From a virus (lineage: Duplodnaviria > Heunggongvirae > Uroviricota > Caudoviricetes), in the IMG/VR virus record IMGVR_UViG_2541047807_000007: a stretch of 33,905 nt of DNA. The stretch is one strand, 5' to 3'. Both the position numbers and the translations under genes were made by a program. This document shows positions 1,859-28,493 of the stretch, piece by piece (positions within the stretch are counted from its first letter, which is position 1; every line of letters begins with the position of its first letter). The notes under the pieces are model-generated. The model was not told where the DNA came from and searched no databases. It saw only the letters and a list, made by a program, of their open reading frames with translations.

Positions 1859-2323
1859 ATGAGGCAAGATTTAAATAAAACATCGGTGACTATCATCAGA
1901 GGAAACCTTGAAGATGCATCACCATCTAACAGCCTGACTATTACGTATAGTGAGTTTGCTAATAGTACGAAAGAGTATAAATCAGCCGATGAATTGAGAA
2001 AACAAAATATCATTTTGGATAATGATGAACTTGTTTTTATTAGTTCAGATGGTGATGAAGAAATTCTACGGCTGAATTTGAAATCTTTATTTCATGACTC
2101 TTTTTTGCGCATTAAATATGAATGCGTTGGTATGACCGTTCAAGAGCGCATGGAACTCGCTAAGGCTCTTCGTGAAACGATAATTTCTAAATCAGGCGAT
2201 ATAAATAGTATTAAATGGTCAATAGGGCTTGATGACTGGAAAAGTATTTTTGACATGATGACGCATCCGTATAAACAGCATACGGATGCAAGATGCTATT
2301 TTAAAAATGATTTATATCAATAA
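1859..2323 (+). CDS. Hypothetical protein (154 aa), AT-rich cargo ORF translationally coupled to cox
   Basis: Strong SD GGAGG 4 nt before the ATG, 9 nt after the cox stop; much lower GC than flanking backbone; no motif I recognise. Confidence 0.6.
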   Translation: MRQDLNKTSVTIIRGNLEDASPSNSLTITYSEFANSTKEYKSADELRKQNIILDNDELVFISSDGDEEILRLNLKSLFHDSFLRIKYECVGMTVQERMELAKALRETIISKSGDINSIKWSIGLDDWKSIFDMMTHPYKQHTDARCYFKNDLYQ

Positions 2324-4310: not shown

Positions 4311-4582
4311 GTATTCGTATTGAAATTGGCGAACGTTATGTCGTTACCAGTGACAGCTTTCAGTTTATTCTCCACGAGAAAAAGAGAGCGGAAAGCGGTA
4401 AAAACGCCGGTCAGGAATGGCTGGCGGTGGTTGGTTATTACCCGAAATTAAGCCAGCTCGTTTCCGGCCTGATGCATCACGATATTCTGACCGGAAGCGC
4501 AAAGTCTTTTGCTGATTTAAACGCGCAGGTTGAGCAACTCAGCAAGCGTTGCTCAGAGGCTTTTGGCTCATATGGCCGTTAA
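4307..4582 (+). CDS. Small early hypothetical protein (91 aa)
   Basis: ATGA overlap with the upstream gene; 11-nt overlap with the A start. Confidence 0.55.
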   Translation: MSIRIEIGERYVVTSDSFQFILHEKKRAESGKNAGQEWLAVVGYYPKLSQLVSGLMHHDILTGSAKSFADLNAQVEQLSKRCSEAFGSYGR

Positions 4583-6848
4583 AGCCTCCGGGCGTTTTGT
4601 CCCTCCGTCAGCATTTGCCGCAGGCACCGGTAAGGCGTTTACCGGTGCTTATGCATGGAACGCGCCACGCGAGGCTGTCGGGCGCGAAAGACCCCTTACA
4701 CGTGACGAGATGCGTCAGGTGCAAGGTGTTTTATCCACGATTAACCGCCTGCCTTACTTTTTGCGCTCGCTGTTTACTTCACGCTATGACTACATCCGGC
4801 GCAATAAAAGCACGGTGCACGGGTTTTATTTCCTCACATCCACTTTTCAGCGTCGTTTATGGCCGCGCATTGAGCGTGTGAATCAGCGCCATGAAATGAA
4901 CACCGACGCGTCGTTGCTGTTTCTGGCAGAGCGTGACCACTATGCGCGCCTGCCGGGAATGAATGACAAGGAGCTGAAAAAGTTTGCCGCCCGTATCTCA
5001 TCGCAGCTTTTCATGATGTATGAGGAACTCAGCGATGCCTGGGTGGATGCGCATGGCGAAAAAGAATCGCTGTTTACGGATGAGGCGCAGGCTCACCTGT
5101 ATGGTCATGTTGCTGGCGCTGCACGTGCTTTCAATATTTCCCCGCTCTACTGGAAAAAATACTGTAAAGGACAGATGACCACGAGGCAGGCATATTCTGC
5201 CATTGCCCGCCTGTTTAACGATGAGTGGTGGACTCATCAGCTTAAAGGCCAGCGTATGCGCTGGCATGAGGCGTTACTGATTGCTGTAGGGGAGGTCAAT
5301 AAAGACCGTTCTCCTTATGCCAGTAAACACGCCATTCGTGATGTGCGTGCACGCCGCCAGGCAAATCTGGAATTTCTTAAATCGTGTGACCTCGAAAACA
5401 GGGAAACCGGCGAGCGCATCGACCTTATCAGTAAGGTGATGGGCAGTATTTCTAATCCTGAAATTCGTCGGATGGAGTTGATGAACACCATTGCCGGTAT
5501 TGAGCGTTACGCCGCCGCAGAGGGCGATGTGGGGATGTTTATCACGCTGACCGCGCCGTCAAAGTATCACCCGACACGTCAGGTCGGAAAAGGCGAAAGT
5601 AAAACCGTCCAGCTTAATCACGGCTGGAATGATGAGGCATTTAATCCAAAGGATGCGCAGCGATATCTCTGCCGTATCTGGAGCCTGATGCGCACGGCAT
5701 TCAAGGATAATGATTTACAGGCCTACGGTTTGCGTGTCGTTGAGCCACACCACGACGGAACGCCGCACTGGCATATGATGCTTTTTTGTAATCCACGCCA
5801 GCGTAACCAGATTATCGAAATCATGCGTCGCTATGCGCTTAAAGAGGATGGCGACGAAAGAGGAGCCGCGCGAAACCGTTTTCAGGCAAAACACCTTAAC
5901 CGGGGCGGTGCTGCGGGGTATATCGCGAAATACATCTCAAAAAACATCGACGGATATGCACTGGATGGTCAGCTCGATAACGATACCGGCAGGCCGCTGA
6001 AAGACACAGCAGCGGCTGTTACCGCATGGGCGTCAACGTGGCGTATCCCGCAATTTAAAACGGTTGGTCTGCCGACAATGGGGGCTTACCGTGAACTACG
6101 CAAATTGCCTCGTGGCGTCAGCATTGCTGATGAGTTTGACGAACGCGTCGAGGCTGCACGCGCCGCCGCAGACAGTGGTGATTTTGCGTTGTATATCAGC
6201 GCGCAGGGTGGGGCAAATGTCCCGCGCGATTGTCAGACTGTCAGGGTTGCCCGTAGCCCGTCGGATGACGTTAACGAGTATGAGGAAGAAGTCGAGAGAG
6301 TGGTCGGCATTTACGCGCCGCATCTCGGCGCGCGTCATATTCATATCACCAGAACCACGGACTGGCGCATTGTTCCGAAAGTTCCTGTCGTTGAGCCTTT
6401 GACTTTAAAAAGCGGCATCGCCGCGCCTCGGAGTCCTGTCAATAACTGTGGAAAGCTCACCGGTGGTGATACTTCGTTACCGGCTCCCACACCTTCTGAA
6501 CACGCCGCAGCAGTGCTTAATCTGGTTGATGACGGTGTTATCGAATGGAACGACACGGAGGTCGTGAGGGCGCTCAGGGGGGCATTAAAACACGACCTGA
6601 GAACACCAAATCGTCAGCAAAGAAACGGAAGCCCGTTAAAACCACATGAAATTGCACCATCGGCCAGACTGACCCGGTCGGAAAGAATGCAAATTACCCG
6701 TATCCGCGTTGACCTTGCTCAGAACGGTATCAGGCCGCAGCGATGGGAGCTTGAGGCGCTGGCGCGTGGCGCGACCGTAAATTATTACGGGAAATCTTTC
6801 AATTATCAGGTCGCTGATGAGTGGCCTGGATTTTTGTTACCCATTTGA
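4572..6848 (+). CDS. A: Replication initiation endonuclease gpA (rolling-circle HUH/Y initiator; 758 aa from first ATG, track ORF starts at a TTG at 4530)
   Basis: HUH metal-binding motif (PHWHMMLF) and catalytic tyrosine motif (GYIAKYISKN); size and position of P2 gpA. Confidence 0.9.
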   Translation: MAVKASGRFVPPSAFAAGTGKAFTGAYAWNAPREAVGRERPLTRDEMRQVQGVLSTINRLPYFLRSLFTSRYDYIRRNKSTVHGFYFLTSTFQRRLWPRIERVNQRHEMNTDASLLFLAERDHYARLPGMNDKELKKFAARISSQLFMMYEELSDAWVDAHGEKESLFTDEAQAHLYGHVAGAARAFNISPLYWKKYCKGQMTTRQAYSAIARLFNDEWWTHQLKGQRMRWHEALLIAVGEVNKDRSPYASKHAIRDVRARRQANLEFLKSCDLENRETGERIDLISKVMGSISNPEIRRMELMNTIAGIERYAAAEGDVGMFITLTAPSKYHPTRQVGKGESKTVQLNHGWNDEAFNPKDAQRYLCRIWSLMRTAFKDNDLQAYGLRVVEPHHDGTPHWHMMLFCNPRQRNQIIEIMRRYALKEDGDERGAARNRFQAKHLNRGGAAGYIAKYISKNIDGYALDGQLDNDTGRPLKDTAAAVTAWASTWRIPQFKTVGLPTMGAYRELRKLPRGVSIADEFDERVEAARAAADSGDFALYISAQGGANVPRDCQTVRVARSPSDDVNEYEEEVERVVGIYAPHLGARHIHITRTTDWRIVPKVPVVEPLTLKSGIAAPRSPVNNCGKLTGGDTSLPAPTPSEHAAAVLNLVDDGVIEWNDTEVVRALRGALKHDLRTPNRQQRNGSPLKPHEIAPSARLTRSERMQITRIRVDLAQNGIRPQRWELEALARGATVNYYGKSFNYQVADEWPGFLLPI

Positions 6849-7107
6849 GTAAAAATGCAGCGTGATTTTATATGCCTTTGAATGGATTATGCGAAGCGCC
6901 TCTAAGGCAGATGAGGAGCAATAGCATGCTGAAGTAGAAGGCTAAATTGTATTGAATCGCTAGCATGTAATTTAAGGCAGCTATTTGATTCGAGTCATAA
7001 AAGAGCATCTATTTCGGCTAATAAAACCATTGCGAGTGACCTTTTGTCGAAGCATAATTCATCTCGAGCGAAGTCTTGCTAGTCTTTCATCGGAATGATG
7101 ACAGGCG

Positions 7108-7139
7108 CAAAAAAACCACCCTGGCAGGTGGTTTTTTTG
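7108..7139. terminator. Bidirectional intrinsic terminator (A7 - ACCACC-CTGGCA-GGTGGT - T7)
   Basis: GC-containing stem flanked by an A-tract upstream and a T-tract downstream, about 260 bp after the A stop. Confidence 0.7.
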
Positions 7140-7836
7140 TTTGAAGCATACTAAAGAATAATACTTACATGGATATTACTGACGTTTACTGACAAACCAC
7201 TTGGACTACCATATGGATAGCCAAAGAGGGCCAGAACGAGAATGCAGTAATAGCACTTCTTCATATCTCCTCCTGTAAGCAGAGGGCAATTTCCGCCGAT
7301 ATATGCGCTTCTGAGGCGGAGTTACTATTTAGCGAAGTCTTGCCCTGAAATAATGCTCTGTTTAAACGCAAAGTGATCTGGCATATCACCGAACAGAGAG
7401 CCTGAACAACACAACATATAGTATGTCGTTGTTTCTGGTTGCATTTTATGTTGTGTAATACTGGTTTTGCATCAAGGATGTTTGAGCTTTTTTTGATATA
7501 GCTCAAAGTAAAAAGCAGGGACTACGGATGATAAGGTATTGAAAGCAATGTAAATTTTTTAAAGTTATTAGTGGCTAAAAAATGCACGGTTTCAATATGG
7601 CGGACTTAAATAAGCAATTAAAAAAGTCATAAATATCACTAAAATCATGGTGTTACGTTTTTTTTGTGGGAGCTGCGGTGACGCTTAAGTTGATTTGTCA
7701 TTAAATAAGCCGTGCATGCAACAAGTGAATGTTTTTGCATGCGTCGGGGATGCCCGTTCCAGCTGCTCGCGGTCAGAGCTGGTGCGGATCCATAGTATCT
7801 ATGCAACTGCATTAAAACCGCCACATGAAGCGGGCG

Positions 7837-7855
7837 GGCGAGGCGGGGAAAGCAC
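7837..7855. other. cos cohesive-end site, 19-nt GGCGAGGCGGGGAAAGCAC
   Basis: Exact match to the P2/P4 cohesive-end sequence as I recall it, inside a local GC-rich island in otherwise AT-rich DNA, in the expected A...cos...Q interval. Confidence 0.65.
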
Positions 7856-7961
7856 CGCGCGTAAGATAAACAGAAGAGCGAAGGATTATGGTTGAGTATT
7901 TGTGTTTTTGTACATATGATAAAAAGGTGTTTACGCTTAAAAACACATCAAAGGAGATGAT

Positions 7962-9263
7962 ATGGAAAATATAAAGATTGATAAGTTTCTCACTATTCAA
8001 AAAGTTGATATTCCTCTTAAGAAAGTGAATATATTTATTGGGCCTCAGGCACAGGGGAAAAGTGTCATTGCAAAGCTAATAAAATATTTTAAAGATTATC
8101 CTATGGATATACTACGAGCTTCAACAGAGGGTAAAACTAAAAGAGATATATTGAAGGAGCAAAAGAATAAGTTTAGTAAAATTTTCCCTCAGCAGTATTG
8201 GGCTGATGATGAGTTTTTTATTGAGTATAGTAATAAGCACTATTGGGTGCGGATTACTAATCGAAAAAATAGCAAAGGGTCATTGAAAATAGACCTTTCT
8301 GAGAATTTAACGAAGACGATTGCTAAACTTCGTTTGATTGTACGAAAGGATTTAGATGAAAATATTGAGAATTCACTTGCAGAAAGCGTTACGAGAAGAC
8401 GTAAACGCGGAATTGAACATGAATTGCGAGTATGTCTTTCTCTAGGATTGTTTTCAGAACCAGAAACAAAGCTTGAAAGTGTTTTTTATATCCCCGCAGG
8501 GCGCTCTTTTTTTGCTAATTTGCAAAAAAATGTGTTTTCATTTTTATCCAGTAGTATAGAAATTGACTACTTTTTGACAGAGTTTGGTTCTCTGTATGAA
8601 CAAACAAAAAAATTATTTAACCAAGATTACATGATTAGGATGCTTAGGGGGGCTGTGCCTCAACATGTTAATAAACTTGTGGAGGAGTTGATTTGCGGAA
8701 AATATATAACAGAAAAGGGTGAGGATTTTATTCGTCATGCTGCTAAGAAGACGAATCTTAACAACTCGAGCTCAGGGCAGCAAGAAGCGTTACCAATGGC
8801 TTTAATGTTATCCTCATGGCCGTATTTACAGTCTGTGACTAGTAAGAGTTTTATTATTGAGGAGCCGGAGGCTCATCTGTTTCCTTCTGCCCAAGCAAAA
8901 GTTGTATCTTTAATAGCCTCAGCGTATAACCAAGCAGAAAGCTATTGTAGCTATACAATAACAACACATAGTCCATATATTCTAAGTGCCTTCAATAATT
9001 TGATTCAAGCAGGTAATGCATTAAAGTGTATTAAGGGCAAGAATAATACCGATATCGAACGCTTATATAAGCTTGTTCCAGAGTCTCAAATTATTGATTT
9101 TGATGATGTGACAGCTTATATGGTTAATGCTGGGAAAGTGACGGAAATACTGGATTCCGAACTAAATATATTAGATGCGAATGAAATAGATAGGATTTCC
9201 TCTATTTTTTCAGAGACTTTTGATGCATTGATTGATATCGAATATTCGGCTACTGTGAATTAG
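7962..9263 (+). CDS. OLD-like / AAA_21-type ABC ATPase (433 aa), no fused nuclease domain; cargo
   Basis: Walker A GPQAQGKS near the N-terminus, Q-loop-like YIPAGR, ABC signature-like SSGQQ, Walker B FIIEEPEAHLFP, H-loop TTHSP; SD AAGGAG; very AT-rich. Confidence 0.8.
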   Translation: MENIKIDKFLTIQKVDIPLKKVNIFIGPQAQGKSVIAKLIKYFKDYPMDILRASTEGKTKRDILKEQKNKFSKIFPQQYWADDEFFIEYSNKHYWVRITNRKNSKGSLKIDLSENLTKTIAKLRLIVRKDLDENIENSLAESVTRRRKRGIEHELRVCLSLGLFSEPETKLESVFYIPAGRSFFANLQKNVFSFLSSSIEIDYFLTEFGSLYEQTKKLFNQDYMIRMLRGAVPQHVNKLVEELICGKYITEKGEDFIRHAAKKTNLNNSSSGQQEALPMALMLSSWPYLQSVTSKSFIIEEPEAHLFPSAQAKVVSLIASAYNQAESYCSYTITTHSPYILSAFNNLIQAGNALKCIKGKNNTDIERLYKLVPESQIIDFDDVTAYMVNAGKVTEILDSELNILDANEIDRISSIFSETFDALIDIEYSATVN

Positions 9264-9271
9264 GTGATTGA

Positions 9272-9709
9272 ATGTGTAAAAATTGCAAAGGAAAAACAAA
9301 AAATAAAATCATTGTGCTATCTGATAAAGGAACATCAACGCAATTGTCAGTCACAAATGATAATGAGTTGGAAGTTGAGCATAAGTTAATAGATGGTTGC
9401 GCTATTGTTGTTGGAGAGCGGTGTGATCATTATTTGAAGATTTATAACAATCAGGATGTTTCACATCTTTTTGTTGAACTTAAAGGAAGTGATGTTGAAA
9501 AAGCTGTTAAACAGATAGTGACAACTTTAAAGTCAGGTGTGATTAATGTAGGTGCTAAAGAAAAAAAACATGGTGCTATTGTTAGCACTAGGAATCCGCT
9601 AAACTCAACAGAAACCAATAGGTTAAAGAAGAAAATTCTTTTGAGTGACGGAGTGAATTTGCATTTCTATAAAATGAAGGCGCAGCAAAAAATAACTTCT
9701 TTTACATGA
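9272..9709 (+). CDS. Hypothetical 145-aa Cys-containing partner of the ATPase (candidate effector)
   Basis: Starts 8 nt after the ATPase stop with SD AGGTGA; N-terminal CxxC (MCKNCKGK), C43/C51-DH, VELKGSD and LLSDG acidic motifs; same AT-rich composition as the ATPase. Confidence 0.65.
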   Translation: MCKNCKGKTKNKIIVLSDKGTSTQLSVTNDNELEVEHKLIDGCAIVVGERCDHYLKIYNNQDVSHLFVELKGSDVEKAVKQIVTTLKSGVINVGAKEKKHGAIVSTRNPLNSTETNRLKKKILLSDGVNLHFYKMKAQQKITSFT

Positions 9710-9722
9710 AGTGTTCTCTTGT

Positions 9723-9746
9723 ACAGGCATGCATTTGCATGCCTGT
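9723..9746. terminator. Perfect 11-bp-arm palindrome ACAGGCATGCA-TT-TGCATGCCTGT between the cargo operon and Q; likely bidirectional terminator
   Basis: Seen in sequence between convergent genes; T-rich run downstream on the plus strand. Confidence 0.55.
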
Positions 9747-9812
9747 CGTGTAATCTTTTACACTATATTTGTGTTGGTTCTAATCTTGTTATGTGTTTGT
9801 TTCGGTGATGGG

Positions 9813-10832
9813 TCATAATGAATAAGTTCGAAAGCGAAATACATCTTCGCCAACCCAACAGTTAATTTCTTTACATCGCTCTTGGAGGAACGTTAGCTCG
9901 TTGCGTACAAAGACTTGTGCTGCTTTTGTTACATCTCCAAATCCTCCTGTGTTGTTGGGCATCATTCCTATCATTTGGGGAGGCACGCGATGAGCACTCA
10001 TTAGATCTTCAGCACTTGCTTTTTTGATATTAAAAAAATCGTCCTTCGTCGCCACTTCACTGAGCGGGATAATTTTAATGCCGTCGGCTTTCCCCTGTGG
10101 GGCATAGAGAAACAGATTTTTAAAATTGTTGCGGCCTTTCGACTTCACCATGTTTTCGCGAAGCATTTCGATATCGTTGCGGTCCTGCACGGCATCGGTG
10201 ACGTACATGATGTATCCGGCATGTGCGCCGTTTTCGTAATACTTGCGGCGGAACAGCGTGGCCGACTCATTCAGCCAGGCAGAATTAAGGGCGCTGAGAT
10301 ATTCCGGCAGACCGTACAGCTCCTGATTGATATCCGGCTCCAGCAGGTGAAACACGGAGCCGGGCGCGAAAGGTGTCGGCTCGTTAAAGGACGGCACCCA
10401 CCAGTAAACATCCTCTTCCACACCACGGCGGGTATATTTTGCCGGTGAGGTTTCCAGTCTGATGACCTTACCGGTGGTGCTGTAGCGCTTTTCCAGAAAC
10501 GCATTACCGAACACCAGAAAATCCAGCACAAAGCGGCTGAAATCCTGCTGGGAAAGCCACGGATGCGGGATAAATGTCGAGGCCAGAATATTGCGTTTGA
10601 CGTAAATCGGCGAGCTGTGATGCACGGCAGCACGCAGACTTTTTGCCAGGCCGGTAAAGCTGACCGGTGGCTCATACCATCTGCCGTTACTGATGCACTC
10701 GACGTAATCCAGAATGTCACGGCGGTCGAGTACCGGCACCGGCTCACCAAAGGTGAATGCCTCCATTTTCGGGGCGCTGGCGGTCATTTTTTTTGCCGCA
10801 GGTTGCGGTGTTTTCCCTTTTTTCTTACTCAT
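9813..10832 (-). CDS. Q: Portal (capsid) protein gpQ (339 aa)
   Basis: P2 order and size; ATGA overlap with the P stop; first gene inside cos on the leftward late operon. Confidence 0.9.
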   Translation of the reverse strand: MSKKKGKTPQPAAKKMTASAPKMEAFTFGEPVPVLDRRDILDYVECISNGRWYEPPVSFTGLAKSLRAAVHHSSPIYVKRNILASTFIPHPWLSQQDFSRFVLDFLVFGNAFLEKRYSTTGKVIRLETSPAKYTRRGVEEDVYWWVPSFNEPTPFAPGSVFHLLEPDINQELYGLPEYLSALNSAWLNESATLFRRKYYENGAHAGYIMYVTDAVQDRNDIEMLRENMVKSKGRNNFKNLFLYAPQGKADGIKIIPLSEVATKDDFFNIKKASAEDLMSAHRVPPQMIGMMPNNTGGFGDVTKAAQVFVRNELTFLQERCKEINCWVGEDVFRFRTYSL

Positions 10833-12604
10833 CAGTAAAACTCCAGAATGGTGGATGTCAGCGGGGTGCTGATACCGGCGGTGAGTGGCTCATTTAACAG
10901 AGCGTGCATGGTCGCCCAGGCGAGGTCGGCGTGGCTGGCTTCCTCGCTGCGGCTGGCCTCATAGGTGGCGCTGCGTCCGCTGCTGGTCATGGTCTTGCGG
11001 ATAGCCATAAACGAGCTGGTGATGTCGGTGGCGCTGACGTCATATTCCAGACAGCCACGGCGAATAACGTCTTTTGCCTTGAGCACCATTGCGGTTTTCA
11101 TTTCCGGCGTGTAGCGGATGTCGCGCGCGGCGGGATAGAACGAGCGCACGAGCTGGAACACGCCGACACCGAGGCCGGTGGCATCAATACCGATGTATTC
11201 GACGTTGTATTTTTCGGTGAGTTTGCGGATGGATTCCGCCTGAGTGGCAAAGTCCATGCCTTTCCACTGGTGACGCTCAAGTATTCTGAATTTGCCACCG
11301 GCCACCACCGGCGGTGCCAGCACCACGCATCCGGCGCTGTCGCCACGGTGTGACGGGTCGTAACCAATCCATACCGGGCGGGAGCCGAACGGATTCGCGG
11401 CAAACGGCGCATAGTCTTCCCATTCTTCCAGCGTGTCGACCATGCAGCGTTGCAGCTCCTCGAACGGGAACACCGACGCCTTGTCGTCAACAAATTCACA
11501 CATGAACAGGTTTTTAAAATCGTCGGCGCTGTTTTCACGTTTGAGCTGCTCAATGTCGAACAGCGTGCAGCCACCTTTCAGGGCGTCCTCAATGGTGACA
11601 ATCTGCCGCCACTGGCCGTCCGCACAGAGAAGCCCACCGGCAAGGGCGTTATGACTGACGTCGATTTCCACGCGTTCGGCGGCGCTGGCGCGTCCCCGGT
11701 TGAACAGTTCACCTGACCAGAACGGGTAGGCGTCGTGCGCCAGCGTGGACGGGGTGGAGAAATAGGTCGAACGCAGGTGACTCTGTGAGGCCATACCTGA
11801 TGCCACCTTACGCAGTACCTGAAAATTCGGGATCCAGAAAATCTCGTCGACGTACAGGTCGCCGTTATGGCTCTGTGCGGTGTTGGAGTTGGTGCCGAGA
11901 AAAATCAGTTTTGCGCCGTTATTGCCCAGGACAATCGGGTCACCGGTCAGGTCAACGTCAACCAGACGGGCAAAGGCGATGATGTATTCGCGGAACACAT
12001 ACGCCTGCGTTTTACTGGCCGACAGAAAAATCTGGTTATGACCGGTTTTCAGGGCGCGCAGCAGCGCCTCGCGGGAAAAATAAAACGTCGCGCCAATCTG
12101 GCGGGATTTCAGGATATCGCGGATGCGGTGCTCAAGCCCGGCGCGATACCAGTGCAACTGATAGTCGAAAGACTGCTCAAAGAAAATCTGCTCCAGCTTT
12201 TCGATGGCCTCGTCACTGAAAAAATTCTTTTTCGGTTTGCGACGCCCGCCTTTGTTGCGGTTAGCGACGTTCGGATTAAGGTCTGCCTCGTTGCCGGTCT
12301 GACTGTAGCGGTTTACCCGTGCCAGTCGTTCAATCTGGCGTCCCAGCAGGTCAATTTCCTTGAAGTCACCGCCGGTTTTCTGCGGTTTGATGATGAGCTG
12401 GGTCAGTCGCGCTTCCAGACTCATTTCGACACGGCTGATGGGGGCAACGCTGTCCCAGCCGTCGCGCTGTTTCCAGCTCTGCACCGTCGGGCGTTTCATC
12501 TGCAACATGGCGGCAATCTGCGGCACGGAAAACCCCTGCCAGTACAGCAGCGCCGCCTGACGACGCGGGTCGTGTAAAAGAGTGGTGTCTGTGGTGATGG
12601 TCAT
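10832..12604 (-). CDS. P: Terminase large subunit (ATPase) gpP (590 aa from internal ATG; track ORF extends to 12634)
   Basis: The internal Met gives the P2 gpP length of 590 aa with SD GAGGT; position upstream of Q. Confidence 0.9.
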   Translation of the reverse strand: MTITTDTTLLHDPRRQAALLYWQGFSVPQIAAMLQMKRPTVQSWKQRDGWDSVAPISRVEMSLEARLTQLIIKPQKTGGDFKEIDLLGRQIERLARVNRYSQTGNEADLNPNVANRNKGGRRKPKKNFFSDEAIEKLEQIFFEQSFDYQLHWYRAGLEHRIRDILKSRQIGATFYFSREALLRALKTGHNQIFLSASKTQAYVFREYIIAFARLVDVDLTGDPIVLGNNGAKLIFLGTNSNTAQSHNGDLYVDEIFWIPNFQVLRKVASGMASQSHLRSTYFSTPSTLAHDAYPFWSGELFNRGRASAAERVEIDVSHNALAGGLLCADGQWRQIVTIEDALKGGCTLFDIEQLKRENSADDFKNLFMCEFVDDKASVFPFEELQRCMVDTLEEWEDYAPFAANPFGSRPVWIGYDPSHRGDSAGCVVLAPPVVAGGKFRILERHQWKGMDFATQAESIRKLTEKYNVEYIGIDATGLGVGVFQLVRSFYPAARDIRYTPEMKTAMVLKAKDVIRRGCLEYDVSATDITSSFMAIRKTMTSSGRSATYEASRSEEASHADLAWATMHALLNEPLTAGISTPLTSTILEFY

Positions 12605-12670
12605 GAATACCTCGCCGTGATGAATACACGGCAAGGCTACTGAGTCGCGCCCCGCGATTCGCTAAGGTGC

Positions 12671-19049: not shown

Positions 19050-19835
19050 TTATGAATGATTTTTATTTGATGCTTTGTATTCTAAAACCTTCTTATTGGC
19101 GTAAAAGAATTTTGTATATGACAGGAATATAACCAGACCTGAAGTGAAATAGACGAGGGATAGTATTAATAATGCTTTTTTGTGACTGTTATTATCTTTA
19201 ATCTCCTGGCTTAACCATTCGGAGTCCTCCTCGTTTAGCTGTAAGAGCTTATTGCAGGCGATTTCAGGAAGTGTGTCTTTTATAAATACGTTTTGCAGTC
19301 TCTTGCAATCGGCAAGGCTATAAGTTTTATTAAATTCAACTGCTTTATTTTTGAAGGATAAAAGAACTTTGTCACTATAAACATAGTACATCATATTTTT
19401 ATATGGTATGCCTATGGCATCTCTTACTATAGCGGATTGTTTGTTGTGTATATAACATGCGAAGAGAATATAAATAATACTGGCCAGAATTACAATTATT
19501 GTTTTAATTATGTGTGGTGGTTTTGTTATGTCACCCCAGAAGCGAGTAAGGAAAAAATACGATGTTTTTAGTTTTCCATCAATCAGCCCCTGCTGTATCA
19601 TTCTCACATCTTCGATGCCTGATACATTGATTCCGTTAATTATTTTAAATAGTTGAATGTCGCGCCATTTTTTGTCGAGCATTTTTAACTTTCTGTCTGA
19701 ATACTCAAGATTGAAATGATGTGCAATAAACCTCATAAGATTACTTTTACCAAAGGTAACAAATGTTAATGCTATTAATAAAAATAGATACAAAGAGATA
19801 AACCACCACGCATTAGTCACATTATCACTGAACAT
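19050..19835 (-). CDS. Cargo integral membrane protein (261 aa, about 3 TM helices), AT-rich, antisense to the late operon
   Basis: SD GAGGAG before the ATG; hydrophobic segments near residues 10-30, 118-140 and 233-253; codon composition unlike the backbone. Confidence 0.7.
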   Translation of the reverse strand: MFSDNVTNAWWFISLYLFLLIALTFVTFGKSNLMRFIAHHFNLEYSDRKLKMLDKKWRDIQLFKIINGINVSGIEDVRMIQQGLIDGKLKTSYFFLTRFWGDITKPPHIIKTIIVILASIIYILFACYIHNKQSAIVRDAIGIPYKNMMYYVYSDKVLLSFKNKAVEFNKTYSLADCKRLQNVFIKDTLPEIACNKLLQLNEEDSEWLSQEIKDNNSHKKALLILSLVYFTSGLVIFLSYTKFFYANKKVLEYKASNKNHS

Positions 19836-24597: not shown

Positions 24598-25125
24598 ATG
24601 CAGCATTTAAAAAATATTACGGCGGGTAATCCAAAAACGGTTGAACAATATCAATTGACAAAGGACTTTGATGTTGTCTGGTTTTTTTCAGAAGATGGTA
24701 AGAACTGGTACGAAGAACAAAAGTATTTTGCTGATGACACGATAAAAATAGCGTACGACAAAGATAATATCATCCGCTATGTGGAAAAGGATGTGACAGC
24801 TATCAGACCGGATGGATTAAGTGTTGTTGAAGTGGCGGATATTACTGCTAACCGACGGGCGGACATTTCAGGGAACTGGATGTTTAAGGACGGCAAAGTG
24901 ATTAAACGCATTTATACGGCAGAGGAATTACAGCAGCAGGCAGAAATTCAGAAAGCCAGACTTCTTGCAGATGCTGAATCCGTGATTTTGCCGCTGGAGC
25001 GCGCGGTCAGACTGAACATGGCAACAGATGAGGAGCGCACACGGCTGGAGGCTTGGGAACGTTACAGCGTTGTGGTCAGTCGTGTGGATCCTACAAATCC
25101 TGAATGGCCGGAAATGCCGCAATAA
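24598..25125 (+). CDS. G: Tail fibre assembly chaperone gpG (175 aa)
   Basis: Length and position of P2 gpG, immediately after H. Confidence 0.85.
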
Positions 25126-25158
25126 GTTGTATGAGCTCTGGTGGGAGCTTACATATCT

Positions 25159-25202
25159 ATGGCACAGAGTAAAGCCTAATCTGACAGTCCGCTCTGTGCC
25201 AT
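25159..25202. other. 11-bp perfect inverted repeat ATGGCACAGAG-N22-CTCTGTGCCAT downstream of G
   Basis: Seen in sequence 34 bp after the G stop; no flanking T-tract; possible end of the late operon or a protein-binding site. Confidence 0.35.
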
Positions 25203-25318
25203 TACCGGACATACTGAGCAGAAGGCTAAAAAGGACGCTTTCAGGACATATAGCAAGGGAGCAAGGATGAAAGAATTAACCCAGTATATTTAATGTTTCA
25301 ATCATGATAGTTTCTGAA

Positions 25319-25347
25319 TTAAAGGGGGGGGTACCCACCCCCTTTAA
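25319..25347. terminator. G/C-rich hairpin (TTAAAGGGGGGGG-TAC-CCACCCCCTTTAA) immediately after the stop of the minus-strand 92-aa gene
   Basis: Near-perfect inverted repeat abutting the stop codon, with AT-rich flanks on both strands. Confidence 0.55.
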
Positions 25348-25626
25348 TTACTTGTTCCACTCAGTCAGAATTTGGTTACTAACTTCATCTGAGAGATTGT
25401 ACCAATAAGCTGAGTTATTGGTTGCATCTACAACAATAAGCTTATCATCACTATCCATGACCGCCCTCACAATTTTGGCTGCATCCTCGGCAGAGTAACT
25501 ACAGTTAACATACCAGTTCGATTCAGTTGTTAAAGCCCAATTTCCTAAAGATTTAATTGCATCATACACAGCCGCATAATCTTTCGTTTTAATGAGGTCG
25601 TAAGTAATAAATAAATTATTAGCCAT
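25348..25626 (-). CDS. Hypothetical 92-aa protein (cargo), downstream of the DUF3606-like gene
   Basis: SD GGGAG before the ATG; aromatic-rich small globular-looking protein; AT-rich; no family I can name. Confidence 0.6.
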   Translation of the reverse strand: MANNLFITYDLIKTKDYAAVYDAIKSLGNWALTTESNWYVNCSYSAEDAAKIVRAVMDSDDKLIVVDATNNSAYWYNLSDEVSNQILTEWNK

Positions 25627-25645
25627 AAATCATCTCCCAAAGGAC

Positions 25646-25672
25646 AAAGAAAAAAGCGCCTAGAAAGGCGCT
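25646..25672 (-). terminator. Intrinsic terminator (AGCGCC-TTTCTA-GGCGCT + T6) between the DUF3606-like gene and the 92-aa gene
   Basis: On the minus strand a GC stem is followed directly by TTTTTTCTTT; lies between two co-oriented genes, suggesting attenuation or independent expression. Confidence 0.6.
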
Positions 25673-25678
25673 CATATA

Positions 25679-25858
25679 TTAATGGTCTTTAAGCCATGCC
25701 TGTACTTTCTTAGCCGAATGACCTACAGCCTGTACGGCTTGAACAAGTTTGGCCTCGCTAACTCCAAACTTTTCAGCCCAATCACGTCTCTCGTAATCCT
25801 GTTTGATACTTATTAAATCATTGTCAGGGGTACCGATTTTGGTCTTATCATCAGCCAT
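25679..25858 (-). CDS. DUF3606-like small protein (59 aa from internal ATG; track ORF extends to 25897)
   Basis: Motif W.EKFGVSEAKL..AV.AVG.S...V..WL is typical of the DUF3606 family as I recall it; SD GAGGA before the internal Met. Confidence 0.55.
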   Translation of the reverse strand: MADDKTKIGTPDNDLISIKQDYERRDWAEKFGVSEAKLVQAVQAVGHSAKKVQAWLKDH

Positions 25859-26349
25859 TTTACTGATTCCTCGTGATACAGGCTTATACCTGCCCATTAG
25901 TTATATGGCTCCCGTGCTGCTTCGTAAACGTTCAATAATCAAACAATTGACACTGATCATAAAACCAGTTAGAGGATTTGACTCTAGCTTGGATATATGA
26001 TGATGCCACCCCCTTTATATTGTTGTCGGTAACTCACAGACATTGAACTCATGCTGGTGAGTGAAAGGCTACATAAACGCCCAACATTTAAACTGCCCTC
26101 AGCAGTGTTCGCGGAGCAATATACAGGCTTCGTATTCAATCCTTGCCCTACGAGAAACCCTAGCCGTTGCCTCGTTTTCAAGTGTCAGGAAGTTCTTTGT
26201 CAGACCTCATACAGTCTTGGGCTGGGTGAGGTGCATGGGGGAAGTTGAAGCCTTAACTGTTGAGGTAAATCGAACTATAAGTGTGCAATTTTTCAAGCTC
26301 GGCGCTATTTTAGTATTGAAAACAATTAGTACGCCCCCAAGGACAACTC

Positions 26350-27042
26350 ATGATCGAATTTATCGCAGAGCATATAAACACAGTAAGTACACTTATCTCC
26401 GCTTTGGCAGCATTGCTAACAGCAGTTGCTACATTTTTCTTGTGGAGAGTAACAAGGCTATTAGCAGACGAGACAAAAAGGATGGTTGACGCATCAGTTC
26501 AACCTCATGTCGTTGTGACTCTTGAACCAAATTCTTGGGCTGCTTTTTATTTTGATATCAATATTGCTAATACCGGAAATGCCCCAGCCTATGATATTGA
26601 AGTCGGATTTAATCCCCCACTGGTTAATGCAGAACATAGAAAAAATAAAGGTATACCATTTAGCAAGGTTAGCGTATTGAAAAACGGCCATTCCCTCAAC
26701 AGCAGTCTTTGTAAGTATGACCAGATTAAAGATCAAGTTTATTCTGTTAGTATTAGCTGGTCTAAACAGCCGGGCTCAACTGAAAGAGAGCGGAATGAGT
26801 ATTCTTATGATATGGCTTCTTTCGAGGGGGTTAGCTACTTAGGTGCAAGGAGTCCAATGACACAGATAGCTGAGCAGATGAAAAAGATTAGAGAAGACTG
26901 GAGGCCGATTTCCCAGGGAAGCAAAAAAATTAAAACAGACAACTATAATTCAAGTGACAGAGCCGAGGAACAACGAGCACGTGAAGAGTGGTATCAGACC
27001 ACTGCAAAGAAATGGGATAAAGAAAAGCAAAAAGATAACTAA
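26350..27042 (+). CDS. Cargo membrane-anchored protein (230 aa): N-terminal TM helix, central domain, highly charged K/E-rich C-terminal tail
   Basis: SD AAGGA; hydrophobic segment at residues 12-32 followed by RVTRLL (positive-inside); occupies the P2 Z/fun position between G and FI. Confidence 0.7.
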   Translation: MIEFIAEHINTVSTLISALAALLTAVATFFLWRVTRLLADETKRMVDASVQPHVVVTLEPNSWAAFYFDINIANTGNAPAYDIEVGFNPPLVNAEHRKNKGIPFSKVSVLKNGHSLNSSLCKYDQIKDQVYSVSISWSKQPGSTERERNEYSYDMASFEGVSYLGARSPMTQIAEQMKKIREDWRPISQGSKKIKTDNYNSSDRAEEQRAREEWYQTTAKKWDKEKQKDN

Positions 27043-27209
27043 TACAATTGACCTGCTCCCCATAAATTAGCATACCACAATCTCAGGTCCGCTCTTCGCT
27101 CAAAACAGGCTGTCAGATTTGACAGAATTTTGGTTACGTAATTTGTCAGTTGGAAACAGAGAGAGTACAAATCAAGGCAGGCAAGCTGATTGCCCGCCTT
27201 TTCTTTATC

Positions 27210-27230
27210 TGTTGTTTCATCCACTGACCA
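27210..27230. promoter_or_regulatory. Candidate Ogr-dependent late promoter element (TGTTGT-N12-CCA) upstream of FI
   Basis: Motif shared with the P/O and V upstream regions; centred about 80 bp before the FI ATG, compatible with a -55 activator site. Confidence 0.35.
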
Positions 27231-27302
27231 GCCAGGTCAAATAGCGTCTCATGCACTGCCCAACAGAAAATAGTTGCACCCATTAACCACGGAGTTAAAC
27301 GG

Positions 27303-28493
27303 ATGAGTGACTATCATCATGGCGTGCAGGTGCTGGAGATTAACGACGGCACCCGCGTCATTTCCACCGTATCCACGGCCATTGTCGGCATGGTCTGCAC
27401 GGCCAGCGATGCGGATGCGGAAACCTTCCCCCTCAATAAACCTGTGCTGATTACCAATGTGCAGAGCGCAATTGCAAAGGCCGGTAAAAAAGGCACGCTG
27501 GCGGCATCGTTGCAGGCCATCGCTGACCAGTCAAAACCGGTCACCGTTGTCGTGCGCGTGGAAGACGGCACCGGTGATGACGAGGAAACGAAACTCGCGC
27601 AGACCGTTTCCAATATCATCGGCACCACCGACGAAAACGGTCAGTACACCGGACTAAAAGCCCTGCTGGCGGCGGAGTCGGTAACCGGTGTTAAACCGCG
27701 TATTCTCGGTGTGCCGGGACTGGATACCAAAGAGGTGGCTGTTGCACTGGCATCCGTCTGTCAGAAGCTGCGCGCTTTCGGATATATCAGCGCATGGGGC
27801 TGTAAAACCATTTCCGAGGTGAAAGCTTACCGCCAGAATTTCAGCCAGCGTGAGCTGATGGTCATCTGGCCGGATTTCCTCGCATGGGATACGGTCACCA
27901 GTACCACCGCCACCGCGTATGCCACCGCCCGTGCGCTGGGTCTGCGCGCTAAAATCGACCAGGAGCAGGGCTGGCATAAAACGCTGTCCAATGTCGGGGT
28001 GAACGGTGTTACCGGCATCAGCGCCTCTGTATTCTGGGATTTGCAGGAGTCCGGCACCGATGCTGACCTGCTTAACGACTCAGGCGTTACTACGCTGATT
28101 CGCCGCGACGGTTTCCGCTTCTGGGGTAACCGTACCTGCTCTGATGACCCGCTGTTCCTCTTTGAAAACTACACCCGCACCGCGCAGGTGCTGGCCGACA
28201 CGATGGCTGAGGCGCACATGTGGGCGGTGGACAAGCCCATCACCGCAACGCTGATTCGCGACATCGTTGACGGCATCAATGCCAAATTCCGTGAGCTGAA
28301 AACAAACGGCTATATCGTGGATGCGACCTGCTGGTTCAGCGAAGAATCCAACGATGCGGAAACCCTTAAGGCCGGAAAACTGTATATCGACTACGACTAT
28401 ACCCCGGTGCCTCCTCTTGAAAACCTGACCCTGCGCCAGCGTATTACCGATAAATACCTGGCAAATCTGGTCACCTCGGTTAACAGCAATTAA
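27303..28493 (+). CDS. FI: Contractile tail sheath protein gpFI (396 aa)
   Basis: Length and position of P2 FI. Confidence 0.9.
   Translation: MSDYHHGVQVLEINDGTRVISTVSTAIVGMVCTASDADAETFPLNKPVLITNVQSAIAKAGKKGTLAASLQAIADQSKPVTVVVRVEDGTGDDEETKLAQTVSNIIGTTDENGQYTGLKALLAAESVTGVKPRILGVPGLDTKEVAVALASVCQKLRAFGYISAWGCKTISEVKAYRQNFSQRELMVIWPDFLAWDTVTSTTATAYATARALGLRAKIDQEQGWHKTLSNVGVNGVTGISASVFWDLQESGTDADLLNDSGVTTLIRRDGFRFWGNRTCSDDPLFLFENYTRTAQVLADTMAEAHMWAVDKPITATLIRDIVDGINAKFRELKTNGYIVDATCWFSEESNDAETLKAGKLYIDYDYTPVPPLENLTLRQRITDKYLANLVTSVNSN

Follow-up and report, generated by a model that had tools for sequence, protein, structure and literature searches.

The DNA analysed here (the window) is the 33,905-nucleotide (nt) IMG/VR virus record IMGVR_UViG_2541047807_000007 (Caudoviricetes), a P2-like prophage in which gene A is followed by about 1 kb without convincing open reading frames (ORFs), the cos site, two ORFs on the plus strand, the portal gene and the terminase gene. 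The two plus-strand ORFs encode an ABC ATPase of 433 residues and a partner of 145 residues. Judging from their sequences and by analogy with a characterized system of Vibrio cholerae, they very probably form an anti-phage operon of the WonAB family, which the prophage carries as cargo in its A–cos–Q hotspot. A prediction made earlier from the letters of the window (the original prediction) had placed a two-gene operon for an ATPase and a small partner at 7856–9812. The ORFs agree with it in their lengths and in the 8 nt gap that separates them; 7856–9812 is the span of the whole cargo interval, and the genes themselves occupy narrower spans. The features of the locus are listed below.

4530–6848, replication endonuclease gene A (from the ORF listing)
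7837–7855, P2-type cos, the 19-nt cohesive-end sequence GGCGAGGCGGGGAAAGCAC, left boundary of the cargo (exact match)
7892–7920, plus strand, TTGAGT-17-TATGAT, a sigma-70 promoter-like candidate (9 of 12 positions matched), the only such site between cos and the ATG
7951–7956, plus strand, ribosome-binding site AAGGAG of wonA (sequence inspection)
7962–9263, plus strand, wonA homologue, 433 residues, ATG start (ORF and homology)
9263–9267, plus strand, ribosome-binding site GGTGA of wonB (sequence inspection)
9272–9709, plus strand, wonB homologue, 145 residues, ATG start (ORF and homology)
9721–9763, plus strand, two adjacent hairpins after wonB (RNA folding)
9813–10002, minus strand, 3' end of portal gene Q, C-terminal ~63 codons, with low GC content and no megablast match in P2-like phages
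9813–10832, minus strand, portal gene Q, convergent to wonB (ORF)
10832–12634, terminase gene, convergent to wonB like the portal gene (ORF)

WonAB (WASA OLD-ABC ATPase nuclease) was described from the V. cholerae prophage WASA-1 (Adams et al., Nat Microbiol 2025; PMC12137116). In pandemic V. cholerae, wonAB is a two-gene operon whose products are an ABC ATPase of the OLD type and a variant PD-(D/E)xK nuclease of 16.1 kDa. The pair suffices for defence against ICP1, and neither gene is dispensable; no ICP1 escapers were obtained, and defence is abolished by the substitutions K34A, R182A, E300A and H333A in WonA and K71A in WonB. It takes the form of lysis-independent abortive infection, and the V. 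cholerae operon also protects E. coli against phages of the Vequintavirinae. Overproduced WonB is toxic only in the presence of functional WonA and then causes translation arrest and nucleoid compaction with the genomic DNA intact, which led to the suspicion that its target is an rRNA or a tRNA; the protein is unstable and is degraded in a Lon-dependent manner (PMC12137116).

The reference sequences used for comparison were those of V. cholerae IEC224 in Supplementary Table 4 of the same article, namely WonB (140 residues, 16.11 kDa) and, for WonA, residues 1–399. In BLASTP the ATPase of the window is 37% identical to this WonA sequence over 412 residues (E = 1e-75), and its partner shares 39% of residues with WonB (E = 1e-12), FVELKG of the window protein being aligned on FIELKG and Lys71 on Lys71. 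The WonA positions at which mutation abolishes defence (K34, R182, E300 and H333) correspond to K33, R181, E301 and H336 in the window, all of them invariant in the family alignment. The two systems share the same layout: a prophage-borne two-gene operon with an ATPase of about 430 residues first and a 16.1-kDa nuclease with Lys71 second.

In Supplementary Table 4 the genes ECE24377A_RS06440 and ECE24377A_RS06445 of E. coli E24377A (NC_009801.1) are given as WonA/WonB hit No. 2 of the authors' MacSyFinder model (PMC12137116). The window proteins are 100% identical to the products of RS06440 (ATPase) and RS06445 (partner), so that this very pair already figures among the catalogued WonAB homologues. 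The cargo is genuine defence cargo of a kind that has been described before. The original prediction had held the pair to be a candidate undescribed anti-phage module matching no named system, and had itself named clear homology to a characterized system as what would speak against that view. The anti-phage part is supported by the homology to WonAB; the novelty is contradicted by the same homology and by the identical proteins in the published hit list. The assignment draws directly on gene structure, homology, predicted folds, conservation of catalytic residues, gene linkage, cargo context and identity to a published hit.

The wonA product (49.6 kDa) is an OLD-type ABC ATPase with no fused nuclease. 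All five motifs quoted in the original prediction are present in the translation, namely GPQAQGKS (27–34), YIPAGR (176–181), SSGQQ (270–274), FIIEEPEAHLFP (297–308) and TTHSP (334–338), and each of them coincides with columns that are invariant in an alignment of 43 family sequences. The key residues are K33 in Walker A, R181 in the Q-loop region, S270–Q274 in the signature, E300/E301 in Walker B and H336 in the H-loop. The only Pfam families found in the protein were AAA_15 (4.7e-21) and AAA_21 (5.8e-9), as expected from the predicted lack of a fused Toprim or other nuclease domain; neither this protein nor its partner matched Toprim, HNH or DUF4435 in the Pfam scan. The AlphaFold2 (AF2) model has an ABC fold (mean predicted local distance difference test score, pLDDT, 85.7; predicted template-modelling score, pTM, 0.87) with helical/beta inserts at about residues 45–170 and a C-terminal extension at about 345–433. 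Its nearest solved folds are PtuA, from Septu and retron complexes, followed by Rad50, with template-modelling (TM) scores of 0.4–0.49. A profile search of the PDB gave remote matches to PtuA and a class 2 OLD protein (E ~1e-7) in the signature/Walker B region only. Full-length relatives with 40–52% identity occur in Enterobacter, Pseudomonas, Serratia, Kosakonia and Nostocales.

The wonB product (145 residues, 16.1 kDa) belongs to no family in Pfam, NCBIfam or PHROGs, and a sequence/profile search of the PDB returned nothing significant (best match Rai1 at 0.21). A full hidden Markov model (HMM) scan of 1.84 billion cluster representatives found 2311 homologues at E ≤ 1e-3 and 957 at E ≤ 1e-10, which corrected the family size indicated by a word-indexed protein search (just 18 clusters). 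The best 150 of the 2311 are stand-alone proteins, mostly of 130–150 residues (range 102–169). In an alignment of 41 diverse homologues D41, C51, D52, E69, K71, Q81 and P109 are invariant, and C5, N29, C43, L70, G72 and A78 are conserved in at least 90% of the sequences. Catalysis is predicted to involve D52, E69 and K71. In the AF2 model (pLDDT 83, pTM 0.83) D52 begins strand 53–59 of a beta-hairpin, E69 ends strand 62–70 and K71 comes next, an arrangement that corresponds to the canonical PD-(D/E)xK geometry. The top Foldseek matches are almost all restriction-endonuclease folds, with BamHI, EcoT38I, Mus81, PaqCI and FokI at the head (probability up to 0.91, E 0.015–0.1). The strong motif evidence, taken together with the moderate fold scores, indicates that the protein is a minimal PD-(D/E)xK nuclease and the predicted effector of the pair. 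Profile searches and structure prediction with a fold search, both proposed in the original prediction, place the ATPase in AAA_15/AAA_21 with an ABC fold near PtuA and Rad50, and its partner in the PD-(D/E)xK fold. The prediction had also stressed the small size of the partner relative to AriB, PtuB and GajB; this is correct but not diagnostic, the WonAB partner having 140 residues.

Since its closest folds include the DNA restriction endonucleases BamHI, FokI, EcoT38I and PaqCI, the partner might instead belong to a restriction-like (or PDC-M29-type) system of the same broad family that would cut phage DNA and spare the cell. PADLOC bears on this reading, which we regard as improbable. Of the specific PADLOC models, PDC-M29A gives the best match to the ATPase of the window (1.9e-31) and PDC-M29B to the partner (1.6e-4). 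The matches are weak and partial: that of the ATPase falls in three stretches, and that of the partner, its only match in PADLOC, scores 19.8 bits. PDC-M29B is matched by 35 of the 41 diverse partner homologues. The V. cholerae proteins themselves find their best system-specific models in PDC-M29A (WonA, 3.7e-23) and PDC-M29B (WonB, 1.2e-9), with the AriA model slightly better for WonA (7.8e-25). This similar strength argues for one family and not two, and the common matches place WonAB, the window pair and PDC-M29 in one broader family, in which the window pair is, on sequence grounds, probably a sister clade to PDC-M29. The limited identity of 37–39% to the tested system, the conserved cysteine triad described below and the fact that the RNA target of WonAB is itself just inferred leave some room for a DNA substrate, but the window pair has the catalytic residues and the ATPase motifs of WonAB, it is recovered by the authors' WonAB model (PMC12137116), and PD-(D/E)xK folds include RNases, so that similarity of fold does not define the substrate.

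From the weak and partial PDC-M29 matches it appears that PADLOC would probably not call the window pair. The PDC systems are 145 explicitly untested predictions, which stem from genes lying within BREX, DISARM or type I restriction–modification loci (Payne et al., bioRxiv 10.1101/2024.01.29.577857). The architecture had also been noted earlier in silico as 'OLD-ABC ATPase + novel REase' in a 2020 survey of ABC ATPases that is cited in PMC12137116, according to which this operon family occurs in 0.96% of genomes and includes all WonAB hits. Both the 'OLD-ABC ATPase + novel REase' family and PDC-M29 have their architecture and both protein superfamilies in common with the window pair. A literature search for 'PDC-M29' gave no result; PDC-M29 is not among the PDC candidates tested in a cold-seep study, the window pair is not mentioned in the main text of Rousset et al. 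(2022), and, for the terms searched, a 2026 preprint on P2/P4 hotspots yielded no passage on it.

The WonAB-family reading, which we prefer, was also weighed against membership of another named ATPase-centred system (PARIS, Septu, Gabija, OLD or PD-T4-4). PARIS, Septu, Gabija and P2 Old resemble the window pair in coupling a sensor from the OLD clade or a related group of ABC ATPases to a nuclease, and PARIS and Old are likewise cargo of P4/P2 hotspots. Their effectors differ: these are Toprim (AriB, GajA, Old) or HNH (PtuB) domains, fused or of about 300 residues, whereas the window has a separate PD-(D/E)xK protein of 145 residues. Closer in this respect are PD-T4-4 (Vassallo et al., 2022) and HEC-02 (ABC ATPase and NERD nuclease; Payne et al., 2024), both validated defence systems with an ATPase sensor beside a separate PD-(D/E)xK-type nuclease; the inserts and C-terminal extensions of their ATPases differ from those of WonA. 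In PADLOC the ATPase of the window matches the models for AriA, PtuA, GajA, Old and PD-T4-4_A, the last with its C-terminal region (residues 234–426, 6.5e-17), and the part of the protein that best matches PDC-M29A and PD-T4-4_A is the C-terminal extension. These matches and the PtuA-like fold speak for such a membership. The AriA models (373 and 304 positions) are, however, close in length to Pfam AAA_15 (374) and AAA_21 (304) and appear to be generic, and the PtuA and OLD matches in the PDB profile search are confined as stated above.

The partner decides the matter for each system. PARIS was rejected on the partner, which at E ≤ 1 matches DUF4435, Toprim and AriB neither in Pfam nor in PADLOC and has a mass of 16 kDa versus about 35 kDa for AriB. 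Septu was rejected as the partner matches neither HNH nor PtuB and the ATPase resembles PtuA only remotely. For OLD and Gabija, likewise rejected, the 433-residue ATPase lacks a Toprim domain, the Old and GajA models cover the ATPase core only, the partner gives no helicase signal, and no helicase gene adjoins the pair. PD-T4-4 was rejected with PD-T4-4_A matched in part and PD-T4-4_B unmatched: the window partner gave no PD-T4-4_B match in PADLOC at E up to 1 and no HEC-02B match, and V. cholerae WonB touches PD-T4-4_B weakly (0.006). With the defining partner domains absent, membership of any of these systems is refuted at that level, and we consider it hardly credible.

Linkage of the two genes was assessed with hmmsearch in 45 loci, comprising the window, loci from E. 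coli, Enterobacter, Pseudomonas and Nostocales and 38 IMG/VR viral contigs, the latter retrieved by an IMG/VR scan with the partner alignment. In all 45 a WonA-family gene lies directly upstream of a WonB homologue on the same strand. A gene of 138–145 residues directly follows the ATPase relative in each context inspected (a lambdoid prophage in Enterobacter, a prophage beside an S24 repressor in Pseudomonas and the chromosome in Nostocales), and its products align with the partner and have the same invariant residues. In the Nostocales genome (GCA_017355725.1, L007 6846–7682) two more genes of the same strand come after the WonAB homologues, one for a protein of 134 residues with no assigned function and one for an HNH nuclease of 141 residues; this WonAB–HNH stretch may represent a defence locus that is extended or stacked. 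The cargo is rare in E. coli, being present in 10 of 5426 complete genomes, and RefSeq names the pair 'AAA family ATPase' and 'hypothetical protein'. The P2-like prophage of E24377A (NC_009801.1, 998629–1018489) is decayed, with a truncated portal gene, most structural genes missing and an IS21-family element in the tape-measure gene; its wonAB genes are intact and encode proteins 100% identical to those of the window.

Preservation of the pair in this otherwise decayed prophage, the organization as a two-gene operon with a small and potentially toxic nuclease, and the Pfam description of AAA_21 ('putative AbiEii toxin, Type IV TA system') could also fit a toxin–antitoxin or addiction module, in which WonB would be the toxin and WonA the antitoxin, stabilizing the prophage with no dedicated anti-phage role. 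Simple sequestration of this kind is ruled out for the V. cholerae system, in which WonB is non-toxic without WonA or with ATPase-dead WonA and in which loss of either gene abolishes defence (PMC12137116); a successful addiction element would also hardly be expected to be so rare in E. coli. We therefore regard this explanation as very unlikely.

Within the WonAB family, some observations weigh against carrying over the V. cholerae description in full. At 37–39% identity to the tested system the phage range, the trigger and even the target could differ. The cysteines C5, C43 and C51 are found in 40, 38 and 41 of the 41 partner homologues, respectively, and all three are present in the window protein, whereas V. 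cholerae WonB keeps only C51, which hints at a structural difference; the triad may be a structural metal site or a disulfide that is dispensable in the reference protein. The V. cholerae operon, part of the 48-kb WASA-1 element, lies downstream of a putative regulator gene, whereas the window pair is located in the cos–Q hotspot of a P2-like prophage and is preceded by cos and non-coding DNA. The promoter evidence is weak, as promoter-like sites upstream of wonA are no commoner than in shuffled sequence. On the basis of the identity level, the cysteine triad that is incomplete in V. cholerae WonB and the lack of an adjacent regulator gene, the P2-borne E. coli clade could tentatively be seen as a functionally distinct WonAB subtype with another trigger, phage range or nucleic-acid target, which we consider rather doubtful. 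Were it so, the small E. coli-native pair could be a tractable model for the WonAB trigger and target.

Extrapolated from V. cholerae WonAB, the mechanism of the window operon would be as follows. WonA, the OLD-type ABC ATPase, would dimerize head to head and act as sensor and regulator, and WonB, the 16-kDa minimal PD-(D/E)xK nuclease, would be the effector. The proteins would associate in a complex in which the predicted place of WonB is on the C-terminal extensions of the dimerized WonA, and ATPase-competent WonA would be required for the stability and activity of WonB. Infection by a susceptible phage would activate the complex, and the ATP-dependent activation of the nuclease would halt translation while leaving the chromosome undegraded, with rRNA or tRNA as the suspected target. 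The infected cell would then arrest growth and release no progeny (lysis-independent abortive infection), shielding the lysogen population and hence the P2-like prophage. Defence by the E. coli copy, its phage range, abortive infection and an RNA target are expected by homology to the V. cholerae system.

The position of the operon is that of cargo acquired by the prophage. The P2 A–cos–Q interval is a known hotspot that holds tin and old, and several newly identified defence systems have been found there. The cargo (7862–9812) has a GC content of 0.343, compared with 0.504 for the whole window and 0.549 for the adjacent portal and terminase genes, in agreement with the AT-richness noted in the original prediction; its placing of the genes as cargo in the A–cos–Q hotspot of P2-like phages is likewise supported, as is their horizontal acquisition. 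The 19-mer GGCGAGGCGGGGAAAGCAC at 7837–7855 is the P2 cohesive end; in support of the cos identity, several P2-like phage records end within this stretch. The distance from cos to the ATG of wonA is exactly 125 nt in all five E. coli/IMG-VR copies fetched, which share the same site.

At the left edge, homology to other P2-like phages stops at about 7861–7864. At the right edge 75 P2-like phage records regain homology at position 10003, inside the portal gene; this places the right-hand exchange boundary within Q and implies that the C-terminus of the portal protein travels with the cargo. Relative to the cargo-less P2-like phage P24E6b the window contains about 1.75 kb of extra DNA. No phage record in INPHARED carries the cargo, matches being limited to the cos flank and the portal gene. 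On the other side of cos, the ~740 bp that follow gene A (6849–7587) are 93% identical to a P2 record, which has no annotated gene there, and contain no convincing ORF in the window. The classical tin/old slot, which lies on this side of cos (the A side), appears to be empty, the cargo being on the Q side instead.

The two cargo genes each have their own Shine–Dalgarno sequence. The first of the two hairpins after wonB is a perfect palindrome, ACAGGCATGCA-TT-TGCATGCCTGT, at 9723–9746. Together with the second, small hairpin it folds with a minimum free energy of −23.5 kcal/mol (z = −4.5), and none of 200 shuffled sequences folds as well. The original prediction had called this element a perfect palindromic terminator. 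The palindrome is indeed perfect; no U-run directly follows it and the terminator scan did not flag it, so that the name 'terminator' is a plausible one. Lying between the convergent wonB and portal genes, the hairpins are likely to be a transcription stop or an RNA-stabilizing element.

With the candidate explained by a known system, the follow-up effort due to a new one is spared. The analysis places a WonAB-family operon in the classic P2 A–cos–Q defence hotspot of E. coli, 125 nt from cos; in the parts of PMC12137116 consulted, no discussion of this location was found. The link between WonAB and PDC-M29 could be taken up by tools that name the genes 'AAA family ATPase' and 'hypothetical protein', and the native E. 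coli copy is a convenient system for finding the trigger and the nuclease substrate of the WonAB family.

Three further AT-rich patches were observed in the window. The first (25130–27300, GC 0.39–0.46) lies between the following two genes.

24598–25125, tail-fibre assembly gene (Caudo_TAP)
27303–28493, sheath gene

This is the Z/fun position noted as a second P2 hotspot by Vassallo et al. Its ORFs at 25348–25626 (minus strand), 26061–26489 (plus strand) and 26350–27042 (plus strand) have no Pfam or PADLOC match. The second patch, in the early region (GC 0.338 at 2001–2500), holds an ORF for 154 residues (1859–2323, plus strand), also with no match in Pfam or PADLOC. The third is an island with a GC content of 0.34–0.37 between tail/baseplate genes, in which an ORF for 261 residues (19050–19835, minus strand) occupies what we take to be the position of the non-essential orf30 in P2; this ORF, with no Pfam or PADLOC match, may be a second, uncharacterized cargo gene.

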